Source of the DNA: Patescibacteria group bacterium
GTDB taxonomy: Bacteria > Patescibacteriota > Microgenomatia > UBA8517
DNA length: 64,000 nt
NCBI GenBank assembly: GCA_036381415.1
Contig: DASVCV010000001.1
Location: forward strand, 1,411-65,410
Direction of reading: 5' to 3'
Below the pieces are notes generated by a model. The model searched no databases. It saw only the letters and a list, made by a program, of their open reading frames with translations, and was not told the origin of the DNA. The translations under genes were made by a program, and so were the position numbers. Position 1 is the stretch's first letter, and every line of letters starts with the position of its first letter. Positions 3,087-62,260 of this stretch are shown in pieces.

Positions 3087-5690
3087 ATGGATATTGGAAA
3101 AATACAACCAACAGAGATAACTACAGAACTATCTAGAAGCTATCTAGATTATGCAATGAGCGTCATTGTTGCACGCGCTCTTCCTGATATTAGGGATGGA
3201 TTAAAGCCAGTACACAGAAGAATTTTGTATGCCATGCAACAAATGGGTCTTCTTACTTCGGGACACACTAAAAGCGCCAAGGTAGTCGGAGAAGTTTTAG
3301 GAAAGTACCATCCTCATGGAGATATTGCTTTATATGACACTTTAGCTAGAATGGCACAGGATTTCTCAATGAGATATCCGTTAGTTGATGGGCAAGGAAA
3401 CTTTGGAAGTATTGATGGAGATCCTCCTGCTGCTATGAGGTATACAGAGGTAAAGCTTGCAAAAATTTCAGGATATCTTCTTTCTGATATTGAAAAGGAA
3501 ACAGTTGATTTTACAGACAACTTTGATGCCACTTTAAAAGAGCCTCTTGTTCTTCCTGCTCTTCTTCCAAATTTGCTTCTAATGGGGTCTGAGGGAATTG
3601 CAGTTGGAATGGCTACTAAAATCCCACCTCATAACTTAGGCGAAGTAATTGATGCAGTTGTTGCAGCAATTAAAAAAGGAAAACCAATCGTTGATGAGCA
3701 AAAGCATGAAGAAGAAAGCGATTTCTTTATTAAAAGAATTGAGTTAATTGCAGCTGGAGAGAAAAAAGAATTGAGCCAGGAAGAAATACATCCAACTTCA
3801 GTTTCTTTTGAAAGCCCAATAACAATTGAGGAATTGGCAGAATTTATTCAAGGACCAGATTTTCCAACAGGAGGAGCAATATATGATGCCAAATCTTTAG
3901 TAGATGTATATGCAACAGGACGTGGCAAAATTAGTGTACGTGGTATCGCAACCATTAAAGAAGGAGATAAAGGGAAGATGCAGATTATTATTTCTGAGAT
4001 TCCTTACCAGGTAAATAAAAGTTTGCTTGTAGCTCAGATTGCAGATTTGGTACGCGAAAAGAAAATTGTAGGAATATCTAATCTAAGGGATGAGTCAGAC
4101 AAAGACGGTCTTACTATTGCAATTGATTTAAAAAGAGATGCAAAACCAAAATCTGTTCTTAACAATCTTTACAAACACACAAGACTTCAAATTTCATTCC
4201 CTGCAAACTTTGTTGCCTTAATTGACGGGACTCCATATACAGTCAACTTAAAACAAATAATTATAGAGTACATTAAACACAGACAAAAAGTTGTAGTTAG
4301 ACGCACACTTTTTGATTTAACAGCAGCCAAAAAAAGAGCACATATTTTAGAAGGGTTAAAAATAGCCCTTGATAACTTGGATGCTGTTATTAAAACAATT
4401 AGAGCTTCTAAAACCCAAGATGAAGCAAAAGTAAACTTGGTTAAGAAATTTGAATTAAGTGAAATTCAGGCAACTGCAATTTTGGATATGCAGCTAAGAA
4501 GACTTGCTGCTTTGGAAAGAGACAAAATTGAAGCAGAGTATCAGGAAATGAAGAAAAGGATTGATGAGCTTACTTTTATACTTAAAAATCCACAAAAGGT
4601 ATTAGATATTATTGTTGATGAAGTAACAGAGTTAAAAGAAAAGTATGGAGATAAAAGACAGACAAAAATCTACAAACAAAAAATAGGGGAGTTTAGTGAA
4701 GAAGACTTGGTTGCAAAAGAAGAAACCTTAATTGCAGTTACTAAAACTGGATACATTAAAAGAGTTGCAATGAATGCATTTAGAGCGCAAAAAAGAGGCG
4801 GGAAAGGAGTTCTTGGAATGACAACAAAAGAAGAAGATGAAATACAACACCTTATCTCTTCTTCAACCCATGACACAATATTATTCTTTACAGATAGAGG
4901 AAGAGTTTTTGGAACAAAAGCCTGGGACATTCCAGAAGGATCTAGACAAGCCAAAGGACAGGCACTTGTTAATATTATTAATCTAGAACAGGGAGAACAA
5001 ATTAAATCAATACTTCCTGTTAATGGAAAAGGAAGCCACTTAATTATGGCTACAGCAAAAGGCAATATTAAAAAGACAAAGTTGGGAGAATTTTCAAACT
5101 TAAGAGCAAACGGGCTAATTGCAATTAAGATGGATAAAACAGACAGTCTGGTTACTGTACAAGCAACAAGCGGTGAAGACTATGTACTTCTTCTTACTAA
5201 GCAAGGGAAAGCAATAAAGTTTAATGAAAAGGATGTAAGACCAATGGGAAGAGCAACAACTGGAGTAAGAGGAATAAGACTTGAAGCCCAAGATCAACTT
5301 ATCGGCATGGAAGTGTTTCCCAAAAAGGAACCAGTAGTGGAAGATAAACGCAAGAAAGTATTTAGAGATATACTTACAATTTCTGAAAGAGGACTTGGAA
5401 AAAGAACTGGGGTGCATTTATTCCCAGCACAAAAAAGAGGAGGAAAGGGAGTTAAGGCTGCAGTTGTTACAACTAAAACTGGACCATTGGCATCAGCAAT
5501 CATGGTAACTGCCAATATTGGACAGATAATAATGACAAGTAAGTATGGGCAAGTGGTGAGACTAACATTAAAAGAAATTCCACAGCTTGGAAGGGCAACT
5601 CAAGGAGTAATATTAATGAGATTTGCAGACAAGACAGATTGTGTTGCAGCAGTTACACCTTTAGAGAAAACTTCAGAAGAAGAGGAATAA
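3087..5690 (+). CDS. gyrA: DNA gyrase subunit A
   Basis: [33 protein letters not shown] and HPHGD motifs, GPDFPTGG, C-terminal beta-pinwheel repeats. ATG at 3087 matches the canonical N-terminus; the ORF track begins at an upstream TTG at 3072. Confidence 0.95.
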
Positions 5691-5692
5691 AG

Positions 5693-5971
5693 TTAACAAC
5701 GGTTTAGAAAATAAACTGCATAATATACACCATTTATATCAATGTAGGGATAACTGGTATTACCGCAATCTTCATTTAAGAAACTCACTGAATACTTTTG
5801 GTTGTGGGGTATTATTTCCTTCTCTAGAAGATAATTCAAAACCATTTCTGCCTCGCGTGCAATAATTAATCGGCCTATTTTGTCTTCTACAATGGATTTG
5901 ATATTAACGCTTGGACCTACTTGAATTATGATGCTACTATTTTCAGCACTCATTAGGGGATTGTAGCACAA
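5693..5971 (-). CDS. hypothetical small protein downstream of the recombinase gene
   Basis: ORF only. No recognisable motif. Co-directional with the upstream recombinase. Confidence 0.3.
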   Translation of the reverse strand: MCYNPLMSAENSSIIIQVGPSVNIKSIVEDKIGRLIIAREAEMVLNYLLEKEIIPHNQKYSVSFLNEDCGNTSYPYIDINGVYYAVYFLNRC

Positions 5972-6013
5972 GTATAATAATTTTTGGATGACTTTTTGTA
6001 TTTGAAGAATTAG

Positions 6014-6958
6014 CTATTTACTTCTTCCATGGAAGCTTTGATGTATATCTTTTAACTGTTTATTAGTTACATGGGTGTATATCTGGGTTGTAGACACATT
6101 TTTATGTCCTAACATTTCCTGGACACTTCTTAAGTCTGCACCTGCCATGAGGAGATCTGTTGCAAAACTGTGTCTAAGGACATGAGGTGTAGCTTCAACT
6201 GGAAGTTTTACTTTTTTAACATATTTTTTTACCATTCTTTGAATTGATCGGGGAGTAAGACGCATTTTTTCATCTGGTGTTGTTGGATCGATATTCCCCT
6301 TATGTCTAACAAACAAAGGCTTATAATGGTCTTCTCTTGCTCTTAAGTAAATTTTTAGCCAATCAGCAGCCCTTGTTGAAAGAAATACAACCCTTGCTCT
6401 ACCTCCTTTTCCTACAACTCCAAACTCACGCCTTTCCAGGTCTACCTTTTCTTTATCTAATTTAGTCAGCTCTGAGACACGAAGTCCAGTTGAAAATAAA
6501 ACTTCTAAAATTGCCTTATCTCTTTTTCCCTGTATTGTTGATAGGGTAGGGGCATTAAGAAGTCTGTCTACATTTTCCCCTGTTAGAAACTTTACCTGCC
6601 TGTCTTCAATTTTTGGCAAATCTATTTTTTCAGGAGAAATAACTTGGAAATCATGCTTAATCAGCCACTTTAAAAAAGATCTTAGAGCTATTACATGGTA
6701 GCCTTGAGTCTTTTTGGTTAAGACTCCTCCTTTTCCATCAGGAAGCTCAGAAAGATATGCTCTATAGTCACTAATTGTAGATTGGTCTATGTTTTCCAGA
6801 GTTTTAGATTCGCCAACCCAGTTTGAAAAGCGGGTCAAATAGTGTTTGTAGTTTCTAATTGTGAGGGGAGAGGAGGCTTTTTCTACTTGAAGGTACTTTA
6901 AAAATTCGTCAATTTTTCGGTCAAGGTCGGTAAGTGGCTTTGTTTGGGCAGAGTCCAT
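6014..6958 (-). CDS. tyrosine site-specific recombinase (XerC/XerD family)
   Basis: Catalytic boxes RVSELTKL, HVLRHSFAT, LGHKNVSTTQIYTHV (R, HxxR, Y) and an N-terminal SAM-like core-binding domain. Confidence 0.9.
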   Translation of the reverse strand: MDSAQTKPLTDLDRKIDEFLKYLQVEKASSPLTIRNYKHYLTRFSNWVGESKTLENIDQSTISDYRAYLSELPDGKGGVLTKKTQGYHVIALRSFLKWLIKHDFQVISPEKIDLPKIEDRQVKFLTGENVDRLLNAPTLSTIQGKRDKAILEVLFSTGLRVSELTKLDKEKVDLERREFGVVGKGGRARVVFLSTRAADWLKIYLRAREDHYKPLFVRHKGNIDPTTPDEKMRLTPRSIQRMVKKYVKKVKLPVEATPHVLRHSFATDLLMAGADLRSVQEMLGHKNVSTTQIYTHVTNKQLKDIHQSFHGRSK

Positions 6959-7228
6959 ACTAATAACTTGTAATTAATATTATTTAAACTAACATTAATT
7001 TTTCTAAATTCAGTCTATAATCTCAAAAGGCAGTTGTCAATATTGTGCGACATCTATTAGCTATTAAAAGCTAAGGAGTTTGTACAGTCAATATTAGCAC
7101 TCTATTTTTAGAAGATAAACGACTTCTTGTATTTATTAACACCCTATGCACTTATGTGTCTTATAAAGGCATTTACCTTCCTTAGCCTGACATCACCAAA
7201 TGCGTTTTAAGGCCTGTCATTTTCGAAA

Positions 7229-7248
7229 GACGACATATTAGTCGTCTA
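7229..7248. repeat. perfect 7-bp inverted repeat with 6-bp spacer (AGACGAC ATATTA GTCGTCT), candidate recombinase core site
   Basis: Read directly from the sequence. The geometry resembles dif/lox-type core sites. Confidence 0.4.
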
Positions 7249-7937
7249 AGTGATAATCCCGTATTTTCGGGCCAATCACTTAACGGGGGAGAAGAGTGGT
7301 TCCATAGAGAAGCGGGCTAGATAGGCAGTGAGGCTAAATAGGCTTAAACCGAAATAAAAGGCGAATATTTTTTAATTTTGGTCCAAAATCAAAGAAATAA
7401 AGGTGTGTTTGAAACCTGTTACGAAGACTGCAAAATTGTTCTATGACAACAAATCTTATTAGAACCACTACACTCTGCACAGTAAATATAGTACGTCGCA
7501 AAAGTATCATTGTGCGACAGTATAATTAAAGTACTCTGTTAGGTATCTAGTACCCATTTTTCTTTTATTAGACTTCGTGTAATGACTTACAAGGGCATCA
7601 AACTATCTTGGTCTTATGATTAAACCTACTCCTCTAAGGGAGTATGTGTCTTATGTTCCTACTAATAGCGCTTATTAGGCTCGTTTTATTCGTAAGTGCA
7701 GCACTTTAAGGGAGCTTATGTTGACGTATATAGAGAAAAGGTGTGTAAGAATTGTGAGGAAAATGCGTCGCTATTTCTTATTTTTGTGCCTAGTAACTAT
7801 ATCAAAGCATAACAGATTTTAAGTTTTGATTTCGTGAAAATAACCTATAATATTTGTGAAAACCTCTCCTCTTTCTCAACCATACCACTATTAAATTATA
7901 GGATATTATAGCCTCCTCCCCTGCTCTAGAGGTATCT

Positions 7938-7990
7938 GTCTTTTTTTTGCGGAATTTAAAAAAAATTAGCTTCAAGTTGAGGCTAGCCGT
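7938..7990 (-). terminator. putative rho-independent terminator of the membrane-protein/yebC operon (minus strand)
   Basis: Minus-strand hairpin agcctcaa...ttgaagct followed by a T8 run, immediately after the stop at 7991. An A8/T8 pair flanks GCGGAATTT. Confidence 0.4.
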
Positions 7991-8764
7991 TTAGCCCCAG
8001 TGTGTTGCAAAAAGCATTGTTATAAATACTACTAAGCCTACTGTGAGGTATTCCCTAACTGTAGCCTTAAATAGCCTCCCTTCGAGCTTGGCTTGGCCTA
8101 AACCTAAGAGCATATAAACTCCTACTGTTAAGAAAAGGGAGCCTACCACAACTGTTACTGGCCAGAAGAAAAGAAGCACTGCAATTTCCCCTATCCCCAA
8201 ACTTGAGATGAGTGTATAGAAAAAAGTTTTACTAGCTAAAATATTTTTTTGTTCCAAGACGCTAATCCAAAACCCTTGAAGGAAAAGGGCAAATGAAGAA
8301 GCAACAACCCCTAAGGTTGTAATCCAAATTTGCGCTTTGATGGAAAGAATTGCATCAAAAAGAAGAAATGAGGTAAGAAGAGTTAATACAAATCCAACTC
8401 CCCTAGCTGCTCTTACCAATGCAATTGTTCTAACTGCTGAAACTGTAAAAATGTTTGATGTTAGACAAAGTGCATATATTCCCAATCCAAAAAGAATTAC
8501 AACTGGAATTCTGGCAAAGATAGTAGCAGGAAGAAGGAACCAAAAAGTTCCTACTCCTAAGGTATAAAGAGCAGGAAGAACAAGAGTTAAAAGCGTCCAG
8601 TTCCTACCTAGGCCCTCCCAGAGCGACCAAACAAAAAGAACAACAGTCAATAGAGTTAAAACTCCAATTGCTAAAAAGCGGTAATTATTATCTAGAAAGT
8701 TAATACCTATAAAGCCAAGTGAAAGTATAAGGGAGGTAAAAACAAATTTTTGTCTTTTTGTCAT
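7991..8764 (-). CDS. polytopic integral membrane protein, hypothetical
   Basis: About 8 predicted TM helices. 1-nt overlap with yebC suggests co-transcription. Confidence 0.5.
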   Translation of the reverse strand: MTKRQKFVFTSLILSLGFIGINFLDNNYRFLAIGVLTLLTVVLFVWSLWEGLGRNWTLLTLVLPALYTLGVGTFWFLLPATIFARIPVVILFGLGIYALCLTSNIFTVSAVRTIALVRAARGVGFVLTLLTSFLLFDAILSIKAQIWITTLGVVASSFALFLQGFWISVLEQKNILASKTFFYTLISSLGIGEIAVLLFFWPVTVVVGSLFLTVGVYMLLGLGQAKLEGRLFKATVREYLTVGLVVFITMLFATHWG

Positions 8765-23010: not shown

Positions 23011-23727
23011 ATGGATAAGCAAAGCTTGGCCAGCCCGGCTGGTAATCAAATAGCCTACCTTGAAATCCGCGGTGCTACAGGCGGAGATGAAGCCAAATTA
23101 TGGGGAAGAGACTTGCTTAGGATGTACCTTCGTTTTGCTGTTAAAAAAGGTTGGAAAACAGAGTTGGTTGCTGAAAATACTATCAGATTTAGCGGATTGG
23201 GTGTTTTTGATGCTTTACAAAATGAATCAGGAGTTCATAGAGTACAAAGAGTTCCTACTACTGAAAAAAGAGGAAGAATTCATACTTCTACTGCTACTGT
23301 AGTAGTGTTACCTGAAATTAAGGAAAGTGATGTTACTATTAGGCCTGAGGATTTAGAGTGGCAGTTTTTTAGAGCTGGTTCACAAGGGGGTCAAAATGTT
23401 AATAAAGTTTCAACTGCTGTAAGACTTACTCATAGACCAAGTGGTCTTGTTGTTACTGCTCAAACTGAGAGGTTTCAGGAACAAAATAGAAAGATAGCCC
23501 TAGACTTACTTAGATCCCGACTTTGGGAAAAAGCAGAAGCTGAAAAAGAAAAAACAGTTGCAGGATACAGAACTGCAGTGGGGCGCGGAATGAGATCTGA
23601 GAAAATTAGAACATATAATTTTCCTCAGAACAGAGTTACAGATCACAGAATTGGAAAGTCTTGGGGAAACCTGGATGCAGTTGTTGATGGAGACCTATCA
23701 AGAATTGTTGATTTTAAAAAAGAGTAA
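23011..23727 (+). CDS. prfA: class-I peptide chain release factor, RF1-like, lacking N-terminal domain 1
   Basis: Matches RF1 from about residue 100: YLEIRGATGGDEA, codon-reading PTT (PxT-like), GGQ motif, C-terminal TYNFPQNRVTDHRI. Confidence 0.8.
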   Translation: MDKQSLASPAGNQIAYLEIRGATGGDEAKLWGRDLLRMYLRFAVKKGWKTELVAENTIRFSGLGVFDALQNESGVHRVQRVPTTEKRGRIHTSTATVVVLPEIKESDVTIRPEDLEWQFFRAGSQGGQNVNKVSTAVRLTHRPSGLVVTAQTERFQEQNRKIALDLLRSRLWEKAEAEKEKTVAGYRTAVGRGMRSEKIRTYNFPQNRVTDHRIGKSWGNLDAVVDGDLSRIVDFKKE

Positions 23728-24142
23728 TATACCCTTTTGAGTCAACTCTCAAAACAATGTTGGCAGAATCTAGAACAAGCGTTTCTTTTTCTACTTCAAA
23801 ACCAGTTATACCCTTAATAGAACCTGCTAAGCTTTTTTCTAAGTATGGGTCTTTCTTAAAAAAGGAAGTGTTAAATCCTAAATTAACATAGTCATCAAAG
23901 CCATCACTTTCAATAGTCAGCGTTGTAGTTCCTTCAGGAGTTTTCCAGGTAATTTTAAAGCCTTGATTGGATGTTTCTTCGATAGTTGCATCTTTGACAA
24001 TTCTAGCCAAGTCTCTATCATTTTCAAATACTGGAATGTTATCAAAATTTTGACTTAACAGGAGGTCGAAAGCTTCCATTCCCTTACTTATATCTTCATC
24101 AGTTAATATTTCATGTATTTCTTCTTTAATTTCTTTTGCCAC
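23714..24142 (-). CDS. hypothetical protein
   Basis: ORF only. Confidence 0.4.
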   Translation of the reverse strand: MAKEIKEEIHEILTDEDISKGMEAFDLLLSQNFDNIPVFENDRDLARIVKDATIEETSNQGFKITWKTPEGTTTLTIESDGFDDYVNLGFNTSFFKKDPYLEKSLAGSIKGITGFEVEKETLVLDSANIVLRVDSKGYITLF

Positions 24143-28001: not shown

Positions 28002-28283
28002 ATGGCATTTTTAGGCAAAGAAGGTACGCTTGCTTGTTCAGAAAACTGCTTTTTAAGAAAAAGCTTTGGAGAAGAAAGATGCAAGGCAGGCTTTTCCATA
28101 GGGGCAAAAGATTGCAGATTCAACGGCCGGATGCTTAGAGACGCCATTAAGGACAACTATGAGGCAGATGTAAAAATAGAAATAGGTCCTTTAGGGGTAG
28201 TTTTTGTATCTAGGGGTGGTGTGACAGCAGTAATGAATGATGGTACTTTTACTATAATTGACAGCTCTAACTTCCAATCTTAA
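28002..28283 (+). CDS. possible small Cys-rich protein in the rpsF upstream region (uncertain)
   Basis: 93-aa ORF with CSENC...C...C. Convergent with ychF and overlapping its 3' end. No homology recognised. Confidence 0.25.
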   Translation: MAFLGKEGTLACSENCFLRKSFGEERCKAGFSIGAKDCRFNGRMLRDAIKDNYEADVKIEIGPLGVVFVSRGGVTAVMNDGTFTIIDSSNFQS

Positions 28284-29271
28284 ATTCAATTACATCTCCA
28301 TCTTTGACTAAATAGTCTCTCCCCTCACTTCTTACCTTTCCTTTCTCTCTGGCATTTTTCCAACCTCCTACTTCTACAAAATCTTTAAAATCTATAACAT
28401 CAGCTTTAATAAATTTTTTAATAAAATCAGTGTGAATTACGCCGGCTGCATTTTGTGCATCAATGCCATTAGGAATTGTCCAGGCACGGACTTCTTTGAC
28501 ACCAGCTGTTAGAAATGTGATTAGTCCCAGGGTTTCAAAGGCTTTTTTGGTTAGTCTTTCAAGACCTGATTCCTTAATTCCTAAATCATCCATATATGTT
28601 TTTTGGTCAGATTCATTTAAATCAGACAATTCTGACTCAATTTTGGCTGATATTGCAATTACTTGATCAGTTTTTAGTCCTAACTTTTGGGCATATTCAA
28701 TCTCTATTTTGGTTGCATCCTTTAAATCAGACTCAGAAACATTTAAAACAACAAGAATTGGTTTCTTTGAAAAAAGCGGAAGACTCTCTTCATCAATTTT
28801 GTCTTTCTTTTTGGTTTTGTGTTTTTCAACCATTTCAAAATCAGCTAAGTCCAGTTCTGTTTTTACTCTCTCAAAATCAGATTTTGGGTCAATACTTCCT
28901 TCTTTAATAATGTCAGTATCAGCAAAAAATCTAACTACATGACAGATTGCATCTACTTCACGGATGTGAGAAAGGAATTTATTTCCCAATCCTTCCCCTT
29001 TATGAGCTCCTGCTATAAGTCCTGCAATATCTACAAATTCAACAGTTGCGGCAACTTCAGGAGGAAATGAATTCATTCCTTCTGATTCTTTAATGGTTTT
29101 GGCAAGGGATGCAAGTCTTGCATCAGGGACTGGGACAACTCCAACATTTGGTTCAATGGTTGCAAAAGGAAAGTTGGCAACATATGCCTGCTGTCTTTTA
29201 AGGAGTGCATTAAACAGAGTGCTTTTACCTACATTTGGAAGACCTACAATTCCTACTTTTAAAGATGACAT
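28267..29271 (-). CDS. ychF: ribosome-binding ATPase YchF
   Basis: VGIVGLPNVGKSTLFNALL P-loop. C-terminal TGS-like VRAWTIPNG...IHTDF. Confidence 0.9.
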   Translation of the reverse strand: MSSLKVGIVGLPNVGKSTLFNALLKRQQAYVANFPFATIEPNVGVVPVPDARLASLAKTIKESEGMNSFPPEVAATVEFVDIAGLIAGAHKGEGLGNKFLSHIREVDAICHVVRFFADTDIIKEGSIDPKSDFERVKTELDLADFEMVEKHKTKKKDKIDEESLPLFSKKPILVVLNVSESDLKDATKIEIEYAQKLGLKTDQVIAISAKIESELSDLNESDQKTYMDDLGIKESGLERLTKKAFETLGLITFLTAGVKEVRAWTIPNGIDAQNAAGVIHTDFIKKFIKADVIDFKDFVEVGGWKNAREKGKVRSEGRDYLVKDGDVIEFKIGS

Positions 29272-29298
29272 ATAGATATTATAACAAAAGATTTGCTA

Positions 29299-30552
29299 TT
29301 ATATTTTCTTGATAATCTCCTGTATGTATATTTTTGATAACCTTAATAATTCTGGATATCTATTGTTGTTTTTTGATGTTTTTACAAAATTTTTGAAGTC
29401 TTCCAAGGCTAATGTGTAATCCTCTTTGCCTCTATAATTTATTAATCCCATGGCAAACTTTATTTGCACTTTAGTTGGATCATCATTTAAGGTTTCTTCC
29501 ATAAATGATTCAGCATCTATCAGTGCCTTTGATGGGATTCGTCTTTTAAAGGCCCTATTGTAATGTCTTAAACCCTGATGAATTTCATCTATAAAAAATA
29601 GTAAAAAACCCATATTGTAAGGCTGGATGGGATCTTTTAAATCTTTTAAACAAACTATTGCTTTTTTTGCATTGTTTTCAATTAAAAAATAATAAATAGC
29701 TAAAAAATTTTTTGCTCTTTTTTCCTTAGGGTTATATTTTATTATTGTATCTAGGTACTTTCGTGTATCAACTATAAATTTCTTGTCACGCTTACGAGAA
29801 TATGTTGTGTATAGAAAATCGCATATTGACAGACTTACTTCTATCGTTCTTTGTGGGACTTTAACTTTCAAGTGCTTAACTGCTTCTATTCCTTTAGTTT
29901 TAGAAATATTATTAAGTTTTTTATCTAGTTCTTCAAATAAGGTATATGCTAACCCTAAATTCCTAGAAACATAAAGGGCAACTCCAATCATATACTCTAA
30001 AGACAAACCCATCCACTCAGTAGTAATTTCAAAACCTAACAAATCATCGTTGGTGGGAAAATACCTTTCTCTGGGAAATATACCAGCAAATTCACTTGAT
30101 AAGAGGTCGCTTAAAATTATAGGAATCGGGTTGTGCACGATACCAGCTTCTAGTTTTAAAGAGTAATTTTTTATACCATTAACATTCCTTTTTGATATGT
30201 GCCCATAAACTATTAAATGGGCCTTATGGCGGCTGACCGCTTTCTGCCAGTTTGTGTTGTCTATTTCTTTAGCTTCTTTGGTATCAAGAGATATTATGTT
30301 AAATAATCCGGCTAGATTTTTTGAGTTAAGGAATTTATTAAGTTCAGATATTAAATCATTGTCTATGTGTTTCTTTTCATCATTATCCTCACTGCTTACT
30401 GCAATTAGTATACCAATTTTATTTCGTGGGTTTTTTTTATTATGATTTATAATTTTACTAAACGAACCAGCCAGAAAGCTTTTTATTTCATCGGGGTCTA
30501 CTTCAAGCGAGGCCTCTGCCCCAGTAGGATTCTTATAAGCAATTTTTACCAT
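29299..30552 (-). CDS. hypothetical two-domain protein in a strongly AT-rich block (likely horizontally acquired)
   Basis: Gene is about 28-30% GC by eye versus about 38% for flanking ychF and the ABC-F ATPase gene. N-terminal alpha/beta region (KIGILIAVSSED...HLIVYGH) plus C-terminal helical repeat region. No family recognised. Confidence 0.55.
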   Translation of the reverse strand: MVKIAYKNPTGAEASLEVDPDEIKSFLAGSFSKIINHNKKNPRNKIGILIAVSSEDNDEKKHIDNDLISELNKFLNSKNLAGLFNIISLDTKEAKEIDNTNWQKAVSRHKAHLIVYGHISKRNVNGIKNYSLKLEAGIVHNPIPIILSDLLSSEFAGIFPRERYFPTNDDLLGFEITTEWMGLSLEYMIGVALYVSRNLGLAYTLFEELDKKLNNISKTKGIEAVKHLKVKVPQRTIEVSLSICDFLYTTYSRKRDKKFIVDTRKYLDTIIKYNPKEKRAKNFLAIYYFLIENNAKKAIVCLKDLKDPIQPYNMGFLLFFIDEIHQGLRHYNRAFKRRIPSKALIDAESFMEETLNDDPTKVQIKFAMGLINYRGKEDYTLALEDFKNFVKTSKNNNRYPELLRLSKIYIQEIIKKI

Positions 30553-30663
30553 TTTTACCTCTTATTTCGGTTATTATAACAGTTAAATCAAAATGTTTTA
30601 TTTGTCGTCTGGAGCAAAAATTCGATTTAATTCGCAAATCCTCAGTTTTTAAAAGTGCGGTGT

Positions 30664-32145
30664 TTAAGTTTCTGCTATTTTATCTAATAAACTGTTGTCC
30701 CAGAATACCATTTTATTTTCAGGCATTAAAAATGCTTTAACCGGTTTTAATTCTTCAACAAATTCTTGGGTGTGGCTTACTATAATCATGGTTCCTTTAT
30801 ATGCTTTTAAAGTATCAAGAATTATTCTTTGAGACATTACATCTAAATAAGTGGTAGGTTCATCCAGAATTAGTAAGTTGTAGTTATTACTTGTAAGTAG
30901 AGCAATTGATAACCTTGTTTTCTCTCCTCCTGAAAGAGATTTTACTTTTTGAAATACTTTATTTCCCATAAAATTAAATCTTCCCAGGAATGGTCTTGCC
31001 TGATAGTCAGGCATGCCAGAACCTTGAGTTATAGTATCAAGAAGTGTTTTTTCTAAATCAAAGGTTTCAAATTCTTGAGAGTAATATCCAATTTTTAAAT
31101 TATAGTTTCTTGATACTTCTCCTTCATCTGGTTTTAACATTCCAACTAAAATTTTAATAAGCGTGCTTTTGCCAGCTCCATTGGGACCAATTAGAGCAAT
31201 CTTTTCTCCTCTAATAATTGAAAAGTTTAAATCTTTAAAAACAACTTTCCCCTCATATGATTTAGTTATATCAAGAGCTCTAATGGGAAGCTCTCCCACT
31301 GGAAGCGGAGTAGGAAGATTTACTTTTATTTTTCTTACCTCCCTTGGGAGGTCAGGAAGTGCTTCTTTTAACTTTTCAAGTCTTTTTTCCAGTTGGACTC
31401 TTTGCCTTACTCCTTTTTCTGATCTATGAGCATATAGACCCACAAGGCTTTCTTCCATTCTTTTAATGTGTTTTTGTTCCACAATTATTTTTCTTTTTTC
31501 CAGTGCATCATGCTCTTCTTTTAATCTTTTAAACTGAGTGTAGTTTCCTTTATATTCCTCTACTTTTTGGTTTTGGTGGTTAATATAGAGAACTTTATCA
31601 ATTGCTTTGTCCATTAGCTCAATATCATGAGAAATAAGAAAAAGACTTTTAGGATACCTACTTAAGAAATTCATTACCCACTTCTTTCCTTCTATATCCA
31701 TGAAGTTGGTTGGCTCATCTAGTAATAGAACGTCTGGTTCAGAGACAAGAGCCCTAGCCAGAGCCAACTTTGTCTTTTGTCCACCACTTAAGCCTTTTGG
31801 AGATTTTGACAAATCAAGATTAGATAGCCCCAGGCTTGTTAGCATTTTCCTATGTTCATGATCTTCTCTTTTGTCTCCTTCATTTAAATAGTCTCTAATT
31901 GTTTTTGCTTTTTCCATTGTTTCATCATACTTAACCTCCTGTGGGACAACAGCAATGTTTCCAATTACTTCTACTTTTCCATCTTGGATGCTTTCCTTTT
32001 GAGTAATGAGGTTAAAAAGAGTGGTTTTGCCTGCACCATTTGGCCCAACAAGTCCTACTTTTTGGTTTTCACCAATGGTAAAGCTCACCTTGTCTAAAAG
32101 AGGCTTATCTGTATAGGCAAAACTGAGAGAATTAACTTTTAACAT
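30664..32145 (-). CDS. ABC-F family ATPase (two tandem ABC domains, no TM)
   Basis: Two Walker A motifs (GPNGAGKTT, GPNGAGKST) and two LSGG signatures. Confidence 0.85.
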   Translation of the reverse strand: MLKVNSLSFAYTDKPLLDKVSFTIGENQKVGLVGPNGAGKTTLFNLITQKESIQDGKVEVIGNIAVVPQEVKYDETMEKAKTIRDYLNEGDKREDHEHRKMLTSLGLSNLDLSKSPKGLSGGQKTKLALARALVSEPDVLLLDEPTNFMDIEGKKWVMNFLSRYPKSLFLISHDIELMDKAIDKVLYINHQNQKVEEYKGNYTQFKRLKEEHDALEKRKIIVEQKHIKRMEESLVGLYAHRSEKGVRQRVQLEKRLEKLKEALPDLPREVRKIKVNLPTPLPVGELPIRALDITKSYEGKVVFKDLNFSIIRGEKIALIGPNGAGKSTLIKILVGMLKPDEGEVSRNYNLKIGYYSQEFETFDLEKTLLDTITQGSGMPDYQARPFLGRFNFMGNKVFQKVKSLSGGEKTRLSIALLTSNNYNLLILDEPTTYLDVMSQRIILDTLKAYKGTMIIVSHTQEFVEELKPVKAFLMPENKMVFWDNSLLDKIAET

Positions 32146-32722: not shown

Positions 32723-33256
32723 ATGCTTGAAACTGCTACTTTAGGAGGAGGCTGCTTCTGGTGTACTGAGGCTATTTTTAAAAGACTTAAGGGGGTTGAA
32801 TCAGTAGTAAGCGGATATGCAGGAGGAGAAAAAGAAAATCCAACCTATCAGGAAGTCTCTAGCGGGAAAACTGGATACATAGAAAGCATCCAAATTAAAT
32901 TTGATCCTTCTACTATTAGCTATGAACATATACTGGATATTTTTTGGGCAACACATGATCCAACAAGTAAGGATAAGCAGGGAGCAGATGTGGGAAGCCA
33001 ATATAGATCTGTAATCTTTTACCATAACGAAGAACAAAGAAAAAAAGCACAGGAATCAATGGAAAAAATTCAAGGTGCAGTAACTCAAATAACAGGTTTC
33101 AAAAATTTCTACACAGCAGAAGAATATCACCAAAATTTTTATGATAAAAATAAATCAACCAATATGTACTGTTCACTTGTCATTGATCCTAAAATTAAAA
33201 AACTTTTAGATAAATTTGGTAAAGATGTAAAAGAAGAATATAAAGAGACTAGTTAA
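32723..33256 (+). CDS. msrA: peptide methionine-S-sulfoxide reductase MsrA
   Basis: GGGCFWC active-site motif at the N-terminus. Confidence 0.9.
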   Translation: MLETATLGGGCFWCTEAIFKRLKGVESVVSGYAGGEKENPTYQEVSSGKTGYIESIQIKFDPSTISYEHILDIFWATHDPTSKDKQGADVGSQYRSVIFYHNEEQRKKAQESMEKIQGAVTQITGFKNFYTAEEYHQNFYDKNKSTNMYCSLVIDPKIKKLLDKFGKDVKEEYKETS

Positions 33257-34022
33257 CTTCAAGTTTCGTAAATAACTTATCAATATCTTTTCCTGAGGCT
33301 TCCCAAAGTTCATTAAATTTTGGTACATAATCTTTTAAGTGAGGATATCCTGATGCTGACTGTTTTGTAGTTGCTTTCCCCCATTCATCGCCTGATAAAA
33401 CTACTATATTGAAAATTTCCGACAGTTCCCATAATGGTATTTGAAATTTTCCTTCAAGTTTTTCTTCCATTTCTCTTTCTAATGTATTTGTCATGTCAGG
33501 CAAATATCTTTTTCTAACATAATCATAGAAAATAAAGTGGAGCAATTCATGAGATGCGATTCTTATTCCTCTTTCAGTGGTATCAGATGAAAACTGGAAT
33601 GTTTTGGTATTTAAGTACCTGGGATAAGGAGGGCTTATGGTTAAATATCCTTTATACTCACCTTCCGGCCAAACCATATCTTTAAAAATTTTACCTGCAA
33701 CTTTAAAAAATTGGGGTGAGTAATCAATCCATTCTTTATTTATTTTTTCCACTAAGTTATCTAAATCTTGAGCATGTTCCTGATAATAGCTGTGAACATA
33801 GTCCTTAAGTTTTTCTAACCTATCTTCAGGGTCAAGCTTTTCATAACCCATTAGCTGCGGGTGTGTTTTGGGAAGCATTTCTTTAAAATTAGCACCCCCT
33901 CTTCTTTTTTCGTGAGTTAGAAATTTGTCTAATTTTATTACATCCAATTCTTCGTTAAGAAGAAATTCTACTTTTGGAAAATCACTGGTTGGTTTTTCTT
34001 TACTATTTCCTGAGTCTTCCAT
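33249..34022 (-). CDS. hypothetical protein with HExxH motif (possible zinc metallopeptidase)
   Basis: IASHELLHFIF motif. Overlaps the msrA 3' end by 8 nt. Confidence 0.4.
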   Translation of the reverse strand: MEDSGNSKEKPTSDFPKVEFLLNEELDVIKLDKFLTHEKRRGGANFKEMLPKTHPQLMGYEKLDPEDRLEKLKDYVHSYYQEHAQDLDNLVEKINKEWIDYSPQFFKVAGKIFKDMVWPEGEYKGYLTISPPYPRYLNTKTFQFSSDTTERGIRIASHELLHFIFYDYVRKRYLPDMTNTLEREMEEKLEGKFQIPLWELSEIFNIVVLSGDEWGKATTKQSASGYPHLKDYVPKFNELWEASGKDIDKLFTKLEVN

Positions 34023-40295: not shown

Positions 40296-41570
40296 TTATA
40301 AAGAAAACTTTTCAAAATGGATATTTGAGTTAGGTACCCCTAGTGCAATCAGGTCTTTAGTTACTGCATCCATCATGGGTACTGGTCCACACATCATTAC
40401 TTCATAATCTTCTACATTTTTTACCAGTTTTTCTATCTTTTCTTTATTAAGATGTCCCACTTTTTGGGTAACTATGTAGTGAATAGGAAATTTATATTTA
40501 TTAGATAAACTACCAAGTTCTTTTTTGAAAACTATTTCATTTTCAGTCTTAGCACTGTAAAGAAGAATTATATTTTTACTGCCTGCCAATTCTTCTATTA
40601 AGCTTCTAATTGGAGTTATTCCAATTCCTCCTGCAATGAAGAGCACTTTGTCTTTTTTAATTCTTTTACTTGTAAAAGTTCCATATGGTCCATCAATTAT
40701 TACTTTTGTTCCTGGCTTAAGACTTGGAAGTTCACTGGTAAAGTCTCCACTATTTTTTGGAGTTATTCTAATTTTTCCATTTGCAACCTTTGAAAGAGAA
40801 AAAGGATGAGACTGGTACCAAAACTTTGGTGTTAGAAAATTAAACTTCATGAACTGTCCAGGATTTACATGGAATGATTCCATGTCTTTTCCTGTTATGT
40901 AGATGGATACTACACCTTCATTTTCTTTAACTACCCTATCAACATAAAATTCATGAGTATAGAATTCATATATTGGTTTTAGAATTCTAAAAATTAATAA
41001 GTTGCCAAACACAAAAGCATATAGAAGATACCAATAATAGGCAAAAATAGGCTGACCTAAGAAATCTTCACCTACCCTTAATTGGTGCCCCCATGCAAAA
41101 ACAACTGCTAAGTAAACAAAAATATGTACAAAATACCAGGCTTCATATTTAATCCTGTTTCTAACTATATAAATAGAAATGAAAATTATACTTAAAAATA
41201 AAATGGCTCCAATTAGAGCTTTGTTTACATCTTCAAAGTTATTAATAAGATCAAGAAACTGTGATGTGAAATTAACCTTAGTAATTTGTGCATACCCAAT
41301 TGTTATTAGTATTGGATGAAGAAGTATAAAAACACTGGATAAGTACCCATTTAAGTGGTGATATTTTGACAGCTTGTCTAGGCCAAAAGTCTTTTCCAAC
41401 CAAGCTGCCCTTCCCATTAGTAAAAACTGAAACAAAATGGAAAGGACAGCAAGAAGACCTGACAAACGTCCAAGAGCTAGATAGACACTGCCTCCTCCTG
41501 AGTTTTTCCACCAAAAGAATAAAACTATAAAGAGGTTTAGTGCTAGAAAAGCGTAAATTAGTTTCTTCAC
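40296..41570 (-). CDS. ferric-reductase-like transmembrane domain fused to FAD/NAD(P)-binding domain (NOX/FRE-type flavocytochrome)
   Basis: Six-TM ferric-reductase domain with His pairs. HPFSLSK FAD-binding and GGIGITP NAD(P)-binding motifs. Confidence 0.75.
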   Translation of the reverse strand: MKKLIYAFLALNLFIVLFFWWKNSGGGSVYLALGRLSGLLAVLSILFQFLLMGRAAWLEKTFGLDKLSKYHHLNGYLSSVFILLHPILITIGYAQITKVNFTSQFLDLINNFEDVNKALIGAILFLSIIFISIYIVRNRIKYEAWYFVHIFVYLAVVFAWGHQLRVGEDFLGQPIFAYYWYLLYAFVFGNLLIFRILKPIYEFYTHEFYVDRVVKENEGVVSIYITGKDMESFHVNPGQFMKFNFLTPKFWYQSHPFSLSKVANGKIRITPKNSGDFTSELPSLKPGTKVIIDGPYGTFTSKRIKKDKVLFIAGGIGITPIRSLIEELAGSKNIILLYSAKTENEIVFKKELGSLSNKYKFPIHYIVTQKVGHLNKEKIEKLVKNVEDYEVMMCGPVPMMDAVTKDLIALGVPNSNIHFEKFSL

Positions 41571-60565: not shown

Positions 60566-62260
60566 TTACCTGACAAGAGGTGACTCCAAGGAGCGGTCAA
60601 ATCTTTGGTATTTTTCAAAACTGTTAAGACTGCTATAAAGATTAAATGATTTGGTAAGAACTGCTTCTAACTCTTTTTTAATAATTGTGTTTTTAAGTTT
60701 TTCGTAGGCATTTTTCTCTGCAAAATTAAAATCATATTTTCTATAGGGAGACTCATTTCTTCCAATCAGGGAGGAATAATTACTGTTTATGTTTTGAAGC
60801 GTTAAAGATGAATATACTATTTTTCTAACATCATCTGGGGTTCTAGCAGAAGCTGGGATTGCCCCTACTCTTTCTACTTCTTTCTTGGCGTTATCATAAG
60901 CTGCAATCCATCCATCTACTGCATCTGGGGAGAGCTTACTTATATAAACATAATCTACTTCATTATTTACTGTGGGAGGAAAATTGTTTGCAATTAATTT
61001 ATCAACATTTACTACTCCAACTAGAAATAGTGCACCTATGCATAAACCAATTTCAGACAAGAACCATTTCTTTCTTGTTGAAATAAGCTGACGAGTAATA
61101 AGTACTATTGTTAATGCAATAAGAAGAATTAGAAATGCAGATCCATATATCCTAATTCTTGTTAGGCCATGGGCTATTTGATAAAGGTATACTCTTCTTA
61201 AAATTGAAATTATAAACACAAGAATTTCAAAAAGAAGCGCAAGGTTTAAATTTCTTAACAACTTTTTTGACTTTTCTGACGCAGAGTAGATATGTGAAGA
61301 AATAATACTTGTAAAATAAACAACAACGGCAACAAGAGTGAGTTCTCCAAACCCACGCCTGACATATTCAGAGTAAGTCATAATTCCAAATTCTGACAGT
61401 TTATTTTCTGGCACCTGGACAAAGAGATACTTAAATTGAATTACTAAAAATACAGCAAAAATAGTACACAGAATTGATACCAGAGTTGCTGTTTCTAATT
61501 GGTATTTTCCAACATGAATATCTTTAAAAGGATGTGCATATTTTTTCTTTATAGTTGAAAAGAGGAACGGAGCAGCAAAAAATAAAAATGCAGAAGTTCC
61601 TACTATCCTTGCTATTAGCCAAGGAGCAATTGGAGGAAGTTTAATGTTAAAAATATCTTTTACTAATTTGCCAAAAATTGGATCTGCTGATCCCAAAAGA
61701 ATTAATACAAATGCAGCGATTGGAATTGCTATTAAAATTCCTCTTATTACTGAACCAATCTCACTCTTTTTACTGCTTAGGGATAATTTTCTTTTTAAGA
61801 AAACAGCGAATAAATCAAGAGTCTGAGGCAAAAGATTAAATATTTGTAAAAATCCTCTAATCCAAACCATAAACAGCCTTTGAGGAACAACAAGGAATTC
61901 TGAGATTGTTTGGCTTAAGGGGTTTGCAAGAGATATGACATAAATGAGAATTAAAGTAAGTATTCCGCTTAAGAAATTAAGAAGAAAAGAGTCTATGAAA
62001 TTTGCTCTAAAAAGTGCTATTAAAGAAGAAAGAATTGCTACTCCTGATAAAAGATAGGCGTATTTTTTATTGTCTTTATTTAAATCTTTATATTTTCCAA
62101 CAAATAAATAAATTTGAGCTGAAACAACAAAAATTAAAAACCCTAGTGTGCCTATAAGGGGTACTGTAAAAAATGTTACTGCACTGGAGTTATATGAAAC
62201 AAAAAAAAGAAGGTTAAAAACAACGATGGCTAGGACGATAGCAATGGCTTTTCGTATCAA
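60566..62260 (-). CDS. large polytopic membrane protein, hypothetical
   Basis: About 12 TM helices plus a C-terminal soluble domain. Confidence 0.5.
   Translation of the reverse strand: MIRKAIAIVLAIVVFNLLFFVSYNSSAVTFFTVPLIGTLGFLIFVVSAQIYLFVGKYKDLNKDNKKYAYLLSGVAILSSLIALFRANFIDSFLLNFLSGILTLILIYVISLANPLSQTISEFLVVPQRLFMVWIRGFLQIFNLLPQTLDLFAVFLKRKLSLSSKKSEIGSVIRGILIAIPIAAFVLILLGSADPIFGKLVKDIFNIKLPPIAPWLIARIVGTSAFLFFAAPFLFSTIKKKYAHPFKDIHVGKYQLETATLVSILCTIFAVFLVIQFKYLFVQVPENKLSEFGIMTYSEYVRRGFGELTLVAVVVYFTSIISSHIYSASEKSKKLLRNLNLALLFEILVFIISILRRVYLYQIAHGLTRIRIYGSAFLILLIALTIVLITRQLISTRKKWFLSEIGLCIGALFLVGVVNVDKLIANNFPPTVNNEVDYVYISKLSPDAVDGWIAAYDNAKKEVERVGAIPASARTPDDVRKIVYSSLTLQNINSNYSSLIGRNESPYRKYDFNFAEKNAYEKLKNTIIKKELEAVLTKSFNLYSSLNSFEKYQRFDRSLESPLVR

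Follow-up and report, generated by a model that had tools for sequence, protein, structure and literature searches.

A single-gene insertion 5' of ychF in a Woesebacteria-like Patescibacteria genome belongs to an uncharacterised alpha/beta-TPR family linked to restriction-modification loci

Genes embedded in restriction-modification (R-M) loci are often defence genes: PrrC sits in the EcoprrI locus, where it is held latent by EcoprrI (PMC12707154), TgvAB lies inside a Vibrio type I R-M cluster (PMC11411939), and further candidates have been collected by 'guilt-by-embedding' (Payne et al. 2024, 10.1101/2024.01.29.577857). Here we analyse a 64,000-nucleotide stretch of a Patescibacteria contig (DASVCV010000001.1, positions 1,411 to 65,410; hereafter the window) and in it a single gene that stands between ychF and an ABC-F ATPase gene, all three on the same strand (Table 1), and whose product is identical to a protein (P0001) annotated as 'hypothetical protein' in a Patescibacteria metagenome-assembled genome (MAG). 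We show that this gene was horizontally acquired in a Woesebacteria-like Patescibacteria genome, as a roughly 1.39-kb single-gene cargo at an integration hotspot 5' of the Woesebacteria ychF; that it encodes an intact, constrained member of a large, uncharacterised protein family of fixed architecture, the conserved core of which combines a novel alpha/beta domain with tetratricopeptide (TPR) repeats; and that the family lies preferentially inside or beside R-M operons and other defence genes. Because of this linkage, and as with PrrC, TgvAB and the guilt-by-embedding candidates, we infer by association that the protein belongs to the anti-phage and anti-mobile-genetic-element (MGE) conflict repertoire, and we favour at about even odds (a probability of roughly 0.5) the whole in which this acquired hotspot cargo of an R-M-linked family would act as a stand-alone, non-enzymatic anti-phage or anti-MGE component.

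The insertion site was compared across 80 ychF loci from species-representative genomes, which were searched with the window proteins; the closest come from Woesebacteria/Microgenomates MAGs with YchF 70-77% identical. The block ychF-rpsF-ssb-rpsR-ctpA-htrA is conserved almost everywhere among these loci, and a homologue of the inserted gene is present at 0 of the 80, so that the gene is not, as the sequence-only reading had allowed it might be, a universal resident of this locus with similar composition in relatives. Two loci (individual loci are given here by labels beginning with L) retain the empty site: in L023 the order VKOR-ABC-F-ychF is that of the window, with only 8 nt between ABC-F and ychF, and in L014 ABC-F directly adjoins ychF across a spacer of about 27 nt (the gaps between the corresponding tblastn matches are 14 bp and 34 bp). 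Elsewhere unrelated cargo fills the junction, namely a 664-aa orphan without a Pfam match between ABC-F and ychF in L047 (5927-7921), secreted-protein and sortase-like genes plus Pfam-less open reading frames (ORFs) between the same two genes in L056 (3452-7985), and Kelch/PKD, PQQ and TPR-PMT proteins 5' of ychF in L008. The closest relative, L004 (complete Woesebacteria chromosome CP066693.1), carries directly 5' of ychF a large serine recombinase (Resolvase plus Recombinase), the ORF of which overlaps the ychF start, and a Prim-Pol/AAA_25 primase-helicase (3831-8053); the pair identifies an element integrated where the window has its insertion. It is this element, together with the unrelated cargo, that makes the ychF 5' flank an integration hotspot. 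Homologues of the inserted gene elsewhere occupy unrelated, variable genomic contexts, and with the empty sites and the absence from all 80 relatives' loci this bears out the proposal, made by eye, of an acquired single-gene accessory insertion.

An exhaustive profile search, with representatives defined as clusters at 50% identity, returned 1,225 family representatives at E<=1e-3, of which 469 reach E<=1e-30; almost all are matched end to end and measure about 410-470 aa. Close homologues amount to only 11 clusters in a word-indexed database of 5.8 billion proteins; they come from Patescibacteria/Levybacteria and are full length (410-429 aa) and 44-61% identical to the window protein. A metagenome scan with the family query found nothing, and a profile search of the word-indexed database, in which a candidate cap kept the hits to 9, added nothing. 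Functional constraint follows from these 11 full-length homologues, from the 1,225 end-to-end representatives and from about 40 near-invariant positions spread across both domains. The window protein itself has no significant match in Pfam, NCBIfam, PADLOC or PHROGs, and the absence of a recognisable family, first noted by eye, thus extends to the curated collections. In two loci the family gene is split into two ORFs (180+261 aa in L133 and 107+310 aa in L144), which suggests frameshifted or pseudogenised copies, or assembly errors.

The AlphaFold2 model (predicted local distance difference test, pLDDT, 81; predicted template modelling score, pTM, 0.79) reproduces the two halves that had been proposed from the letters: residues 44-166, approximately, form an alpha/beta domain, and residues 167-416 are wholly helical, made of connecting helices and helical repeats. 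In the predicted structure the C-terminal half is a right-handed alpha-solenoid superposable on solved TPR domains, in keeping with TPR_2 matches in 47 of 70 family members (best E 1e-6) and with matches of the family profile to the PDB sequences of Ctr9 (E 2.5e-5) and TTC0263 (E 1.4e-4); the window protein alone gives TPR matches in Pfam below threshold only. By structure comparison the only candidate resemblance of the predicted alpha/beta domain is to non-enzymatic PelC/TolB-N/FlgT-like modules, its other putative neighbours being LpoB and PqiC, and all of these are envelope-assembly modules. Near-invariant residues include G47, D66, F84, G117, R122, H140, E154 and P160 in the alpha/beta domain and F289, F316, L317, Y331, E348, F350, N372, K376, D378 and F389 in the TPR part, and conservation is equal in the two halves (mean column entropy 2.44 and 2.52 bits). 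A hypervariable TPR sensor is thereby rejected, the TPR region being as conserved as the N-terminal domain. An Amidase_3-like metal hydrolase in the N-terminal domain was likewise discarded (no H-E-H triad is conserved, and E55 and H112 are not conserved family-wide), and structure and profile comparisons gave no support for a TIR, SIR2, nuclease or Toprim effector. The sequence-only reading of an 'alpha/beta effector plus helical sensor' is consequently not supported, its presumed effector resembling, if anything, non-enzymatic modules and its presumed sensor being conserved and not diversifying; nor did structure prediction assign a housekeeping fold and function.

An N-terminal transmembrane (TM) segment is predicted in 107 of 163 family sequences and two in 98 of the 163, the latter forming a tight hairpin (median loop 5 aa) followed by 15 aa that carry 3.4 K/R against 0.24 D/E. 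With the positive-inside rule, this basic stretch shows the conserved core to be, by prediction, cytoplasmic, and most members to be putatively tethered by the N-terminal 2-TM hairpin. The clade of the window protein is TM-less: in the window protein no hydrophobic segment reaches the TM threshold, and residues 1-43 occupy the position of the hairpin of other members. A Pfam lead for the hairpin, '8xMP', matched 2 of 70 members only (E 5e-5 in one) and led nowhere.

We examined 71 loci with family members and read four further TM-less loci separately. When neighbouring ORFs were clustered, one dominant recurrent group emerged, present at 13 loci, mostly directly upstream on the same strand at gaps of -3 to 80 nt, and Pfam identifies its members as R-M components. 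They comprise type IIG Eco57I/MmeI-like enzymes (L148, L128), a type I HsdM-HsdS fusion preceded by HsdR (L141, hsdR-hsdMS-X), a stand-alone HsdS (L124) and N6_N4 methylases (L136, L109, L104); in L117 the family gene is flanked by both hsdM and hsdS (hsdM-X-hsdS), with stops and starts overlapping. R-M genes lie within two genes on either side in 12 of 58 non-redundant loci, and they occupy position -1 in 7 of 42 cases against 5 of 215 at three or more positions away in the same loci (Fisher p = 8e-4); the control rate is 0 of 1,476 ORFs in the ychF loci and the window. Furthermore, when the 150 nearest neighbours were tallied by Pfam without bias, R-M modules made up all six of the commonest families; ResIII, GmrSD_N, RE_AlwI, XhoI and two resolvases also occur. 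A conserved small partner ORF was not found, the small upstream ORFs in L084 and L088 being neither homologous nor recurrent.

Again, the TM-less clade of the window protein shows the same R-M linkage as the rest of the family. Its member in L128, 34% identical to the window protein, adjoins a LexA/S24-type IIG enzyme; in L159 the family gene is followed by a TaqI-type endonuclease and a methylase; a complete type I R-M operon stands 2.4 kb away in L156; the L001 copy lies amid three SoFic/PDC-S04-like Fic genes and toxin-antitoxin (TA) modules; and SIR2_2 and LmuA-like genes are near the copy in L084. The TM-less contexts without defence genes are those of the window, L088, L158 and L160.

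Several of these loci hold features of separate interest. In L128 (5147-7813, minus strand) a LexA DNA-binding domain and an S24 peptidase are fused to the type IIG Eco57I/MmeI-like enzyme, and in L147 (2012-3466, minus strand) a LexA-like N-terminus, judged by eye, is fused to an N6_N4-type methylase; both may be SOS-cleavable restriction or modification enzymes. In L156 (11675-17233; also L157) a RelA_SpoT-family gene of 344 aa lies between hsdM and hsdS of a type I R-M operon with overlapping coding ends, and is a further R-M-embedded candidate that resembles toxSAS/CapRel. The family gene also stands beside genes for the large or small subunit of ribonucleotide reductase in three independent loci (L086/L118, 5012-7933; L090, 1582-2742; L126, 4655-6925), and in L086 it stands, with other genes, between nrdA-like and nrdB-like genes; this adjacency may be chance or a second preferred insertion site.

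The guess that the gene serves defence has therefore gained a significant family-wide link to R-M genes and defence islands, but the link is one of association, and the window copy has no R-M gene nearby. It is important to note what else weighs against the favoured whole. All of the evidence for a defence role is genomic association; the internal control, though significant, is weaker (p = 0.006 for positions up to one gene away) and its counts are small, and the external control is a conserved housekeeping region and hence favourable. About 75-80% of family loci have no R-M neighbour, though many contigs are short, and some contexts look housekeeping- or envelope-like (ribonucleotide reductase, MgtE, HSP90, glycosyltransferases, Cu-oxidase). 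The 64-kb window contains no R-M-like ORF, and no other defence gene is near the inserted copy; no PADLOC model matched, the PDC candidates included. At the level of the protein, structure and profile comparisons recovered no fold recognisable as that of an effector or enzyme, the TPR half lacks the hypervariability of many immune sensors, and the window protein has no TM hairpin, so that a membrane-effector mechanism cannot apply to it directly. Finally, the time of acquisition cannot be read from the composition of the window, since the third codon positions are host-like.

The most economical model is non-enzymatic: the protein would bind a ligand and assemble. A putative conserved groove of the TPR half would recognise that ligand, a conserved protein or peptide that comes from the phage or is a component of the host or of R-M. 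Self-assembly would fall to the PelC/TolB-N-like alpha/beta domain; 2-TM members would assemble on the inner membrane face, where their hairpins may serve as toxic effector, and the TM-less window protein would act by binding or sequestration alone or with some partner. Ligand, oligomerisation and membrane effect are all speculative here. A bolder version, which we consider improbable, is a widespread, hitherto unrecognised immune module, enzyme-free and made of a single protein, in which the TPR groove detects a phage or anti-restriction protein, the cytoplasmic PelC-like domain polymerises into rings beneath the membrane and the 2-TM hairpins breach it, TM-less versions purely sequestering the invader; if true, R-M-linked defence would gain a new mechanistic class, one that extends even to the ultra-small Patescibacteria, which were thought to be immune-poor.

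Among the alternatives, the one that fares best would make the family an accessory or 'guardian' of R-M that works only with a methyltransferase or an R-M complex, by tethering it, regulating it or, in the manner of PrrC and PARIS, sensing when phage anti-restriction proteins inhibit it, the window copy being an orphan that lost its partner or one that uses an R-M system elsewhere in the genome. The upstream neighbour, when R-M-linked, is always a methyltransferase- or specificity-domain protein and is often translationally coupled to the family gene (gaps of -3 to +5 nt); the strong conservation of the TPR half would suit a host partner that is itself conserved more than a phage ligand that varies; and PrrC, latent under EcoprrI, is a precedent (PMC12707154). 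The partners, however, span type I, IIG, II and III R-M systems and both gamma- and beta-class methylases, which argues against one physical partner, some members adjoin Fic/TA or SIR2/Lamassu-like genes instead, and the large majority of loci noted above, that of the window included, have no R-M gene adjacent. We regard this dependence on R-M as possible, if unlikely.

Composition bears on the next alternative, a non-defence cargo of mobile elements. The strong AT-richness reported by eye (28-30% GC against 38% in the neighbours) is real in that the inserted gene, at 31.0% GC, is the lowest of the 71 window ORFs (mean 36.1%, standard deviation 2.3; z = -2.2), but the contrast is milder than it had seemed, the flanking genes standing at 35.5% (ychF) and 33.9% (ABC-F). 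The first two codon positions carry the whole deficit (GC1 0.385, GC2 0.282); at the third (GC3) the gene, with 0.263 where the window averages 0.244 (z = +0.6), is host-like. Lysine, asparagine and isoleucine, in which the protein had rightly been called rich, make up 30.0% of its residues against 20.3% in the other window proteins (z = 3.0). The AT bias therefore stems from a Lys/Asn/Ile-rich protein and not from foreign synonymous codons, so that foreign codon usage as a sign of recent transfer is rejected for the window, and with it the claim that composition marks the acquisition as recent. Three other low-GC ORFs of the window, all on the minus strand (60566-62260, 0.317; 40296-41570, 0.320; 23714-24142, 0.326), may be further accessory genes. 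Across the family, 44 loci, from hosts of 30-61% GC, have three or more further ORFs; in 42 of these the GC of the family gene is below that of its neighbours (mean -8.7 points; Wilcoxon p = 2e-12), in 41 its GC3 is lower (mean -14 points), and in 27 it is the single lowest-GC ORF. AT-richness relative to the host is thus a family trait, of the sort that typically marks a gene pool in horizontal circulation; it stands out chiefly where host GC is higher, and in the window the GC3 signal is invisible because the host itself is very AT-rich.

This consistent bias is what one would expect of a moron-like passenger engaged in element maintenance, anti-defence or host manipulation, with R-M genes as co-residents through common hotspots, and the serine-recombinase/primase element at the same site in L004, the resolvases among the neighbours, the putatively decayed copies and a possible promoter of its own point the same way. 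Against such cargo, no family relative was found in 2.9 M IMG/VR viral contigs or, by tblastn, in 50,697 INPHARED phage genomes and 72,556 PLSDB plasmids; neither a recombinase nor a tRNA-like element accompanies the window copy; and the stop/start overlaps within the R-M operon of L117 indicate co-expression, beyond co-location. On balance a passenger outside defence is doubtful.

A third alternative turns on the N-terminal domain, whose putative structural neighbours among the envelope-assembly modules would suit a housekeeping or niche-specific scaffold of the cytoplasmic membrane, a TPR adaptor for envelope, polysaccharide or nucleotide-metabolism complexes outside conflict systems. The even conservation of both domains, the contexts with glycosyltransferase or envelope genes and the three independent ribonucleotide-reductase loci agree with it. 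Its distribution, however, is patchy for such a role (11 close clusters in 5.8 billion proteins, and none at the ychF loci of 80 relatives), its genomic location is variable and its GC signature strongly foreign, and we consider a scaffold quite improbable. That the ORF is spurious or decaying and functionless in the window genome is scarcely credible: the copy is solo, without a partner, and pseudogenised relatives exist elsewhere, but its 417 codons are intact and preceded by a strong ribosome-binding site (RBS), the protein keeps all family-wide near-invariant residues and its fold is predicted with confidence. The stand-alone defence component set out at the start thus remains the reading we prefer.

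The features of the locus are collected in Table 1. Both flanking genes had been named correctly from the letters, as the profile matches listed there confirm, and the upstream spacer agrees with the AT-rich 110 bp first reported. The RBS of the inserted gene, AAGAGGT (30557-30563), lies 4 nt before the ATG, and within the same spacer a possible extended -10 box, TGTTATAAT, stands at 30573-30581; a motif search finds 4 copies of it in the 64 kb, where 1.2 would be expected. The 10-nt sequence TGTTATAATA, which matches the extended -10 consensus, is repeated exactly and in direct orientation on both sides of the gene on the minus strand, at 30572-30581 and in the downstream spacer. The pair could be a target-site duplication created by the insertion event. 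The ychF-proximal copy, however, is the -10 box native to ychF, which ends 5 nt short of its ATG and is conserved in relatives, so that the pair is more simply read as two putative extended -10 promoter boxes and a duplication is the less likely reading. A TATAAT-like box 5-8 nt before the ychF start recurs in the window (29272-29286), in L023 (7985-8000), where the ABC-F stop codon overlaps it, and in L014, L048 and L054; as a conserved trait, the ychF mRNA of Woesebacteria may thus be leaderless or nearly so. A terminator scan found no terminator-like site accompanying the inserted gene, and an Rfam scan of 27-33 kb gave no match. Further upstream, a 257-aa ORF (33249-34022, minus strand) lies between msrA and msrB and overlaps the stop of msrA, which is on the opposite strand, by 8 nt; it has no NCBIfam match at E<=0.01.

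Table 1. Features of the inserted gene, its product and its surroundings (window coordinates)
Feature	Position	Strand	Description
Inserted gene	29299-30552	minus	417-aa ORF, ATG start; TM-less member of the uncharacterised alpha/beta + TPR family
Residues 1-43	30424-30552	minus	poorly conserved soluble segment, beta-hairpin and short helix (predicted); pLDDT 41-68, highest column entropy
Residues 44-166	30055-30423	minus	conserved alpha/beta domain, b1-a1-b2-a-a-b3/b4 long hairpin-a-b5 (predicted)
Residues 167-255	29788-30054	minus	long connecting helices (predicted), including the conserved 'Y-I/M-I-G-x-A-x-x-x-S' helix (Y187, A192, S196)
Residues 256-417	29302-29787	minus	TPR-like helical repeats (predicted)
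Upstream spacer	30553-30663	minus	111 nt, 29.7% GC; holds possible promoter of the inserted gene and RBS
Downstream spacer, inserted gene to ychF	29272-29298	minus	27 nt; contains second copy of TGTTATAATA, 29277-29286
ychF	28267-29271	minus	TIGR00092, E 1e-110; starts the conserved ychF-rpsF-ssb-rpsR-ctpA-htrA block
ABC-F ATPase gene	30664-32145	minus	NF000355, E 1e-123

If the association reflects function, these data add an uncatalogued defence family that numbers about 1,200 clusters at 50% identity, carries a new domain, lacks any recognisable enzymatic effector, travels with several R-M types and reaches the Patescibacteria/candidate phyla radiation (CPR), whose immune repertoires are poorly known. 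As a candidate it lends itself to concrete tests, being one gene of about 1.25 kb for which R-M-embedded cassettes occur in nature for comparison, and the Woesebacteria ychF 5' hotspot should be useful for finding further accessory cargo in reduced genomes. Should the role lie outside defence, the gene would be one more orphan accessory gene beside the hundreds of embedded candidates already in the literature. R-M-linked accessory defence candidates are a kind already known; the family itself is undescribed, and the texts on DefensePredictor and of Payne et al. hold no identifiable description of the alpha/beta plus TPR architecture.

Set beside known systems, the family shares parts of its organisation with several. 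With the PADLOC 'PDC' candidates and the Hma-, BREX- and R-M-embedded ones (Payne et al. 2024) it shares the logic of discovery, an uncharacterised gene that keeps turning up within or next to defence systems; it differs in that 70 family members gave no consistent match to 5,027 PADLOC v2 models (the best being 2 members to PDC-M71B, E 1.5e-4) and the window protein gave 0 matches in PADLOC-DB v2.0.0, and as far as tested it is not among the catalogued candidates. To the 2-TM abortive-infection effectors (SLATT, PycTM, CARF-2TM) most members are alike in their N-terminal 2-TM hairpin, but the window protein has none, and the family shows no significant sequence similarity to these effectors; no nucleotide cyclase or CARF/SAVED partner is among the 25 commonest Pfam families of the 150 immediate neighbours, and the weak PADLOC matches to PycTM or CARF_2M in 1-2 members only probably reflect TM composition. 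The C-terminal ~160 residues are TPR-like by profile and fold, as in Rap/NprR/PlcR, OGT, Ctr9 and BamD, yet here the repeats are fused to the family's own alpha/beta domain and come without the helix-turn-helix (HTH), phosphatase or other output domain of RRNPP sensors. For that alpha/beta domain, PelC, the TolB N-terminal domain, FlgT, HpaA and LpoB-type modules may, by modelled structure, be among the closest known. PrrC/Rlo is a parallel in genomic organisation: the family, too, occurs as a single accessory gene inside R-M operons (L117, L141) as well as solo, and is a candidate second-line defence. Unlike PrrC/Rlo, it has no ABC-ATPase-like N-terminal domain (Pfam, NCBIfam and PADLOC yield neither a P-loop nor an ABC match), an anticodon-nuclease domain is absent too, and sequence and fold are dissimilar; the window copy stands between ABC-F and ychF and not in any R-M locus; and where PrrC/Rlo keeps to type IC, the family is linked to several R-M types.

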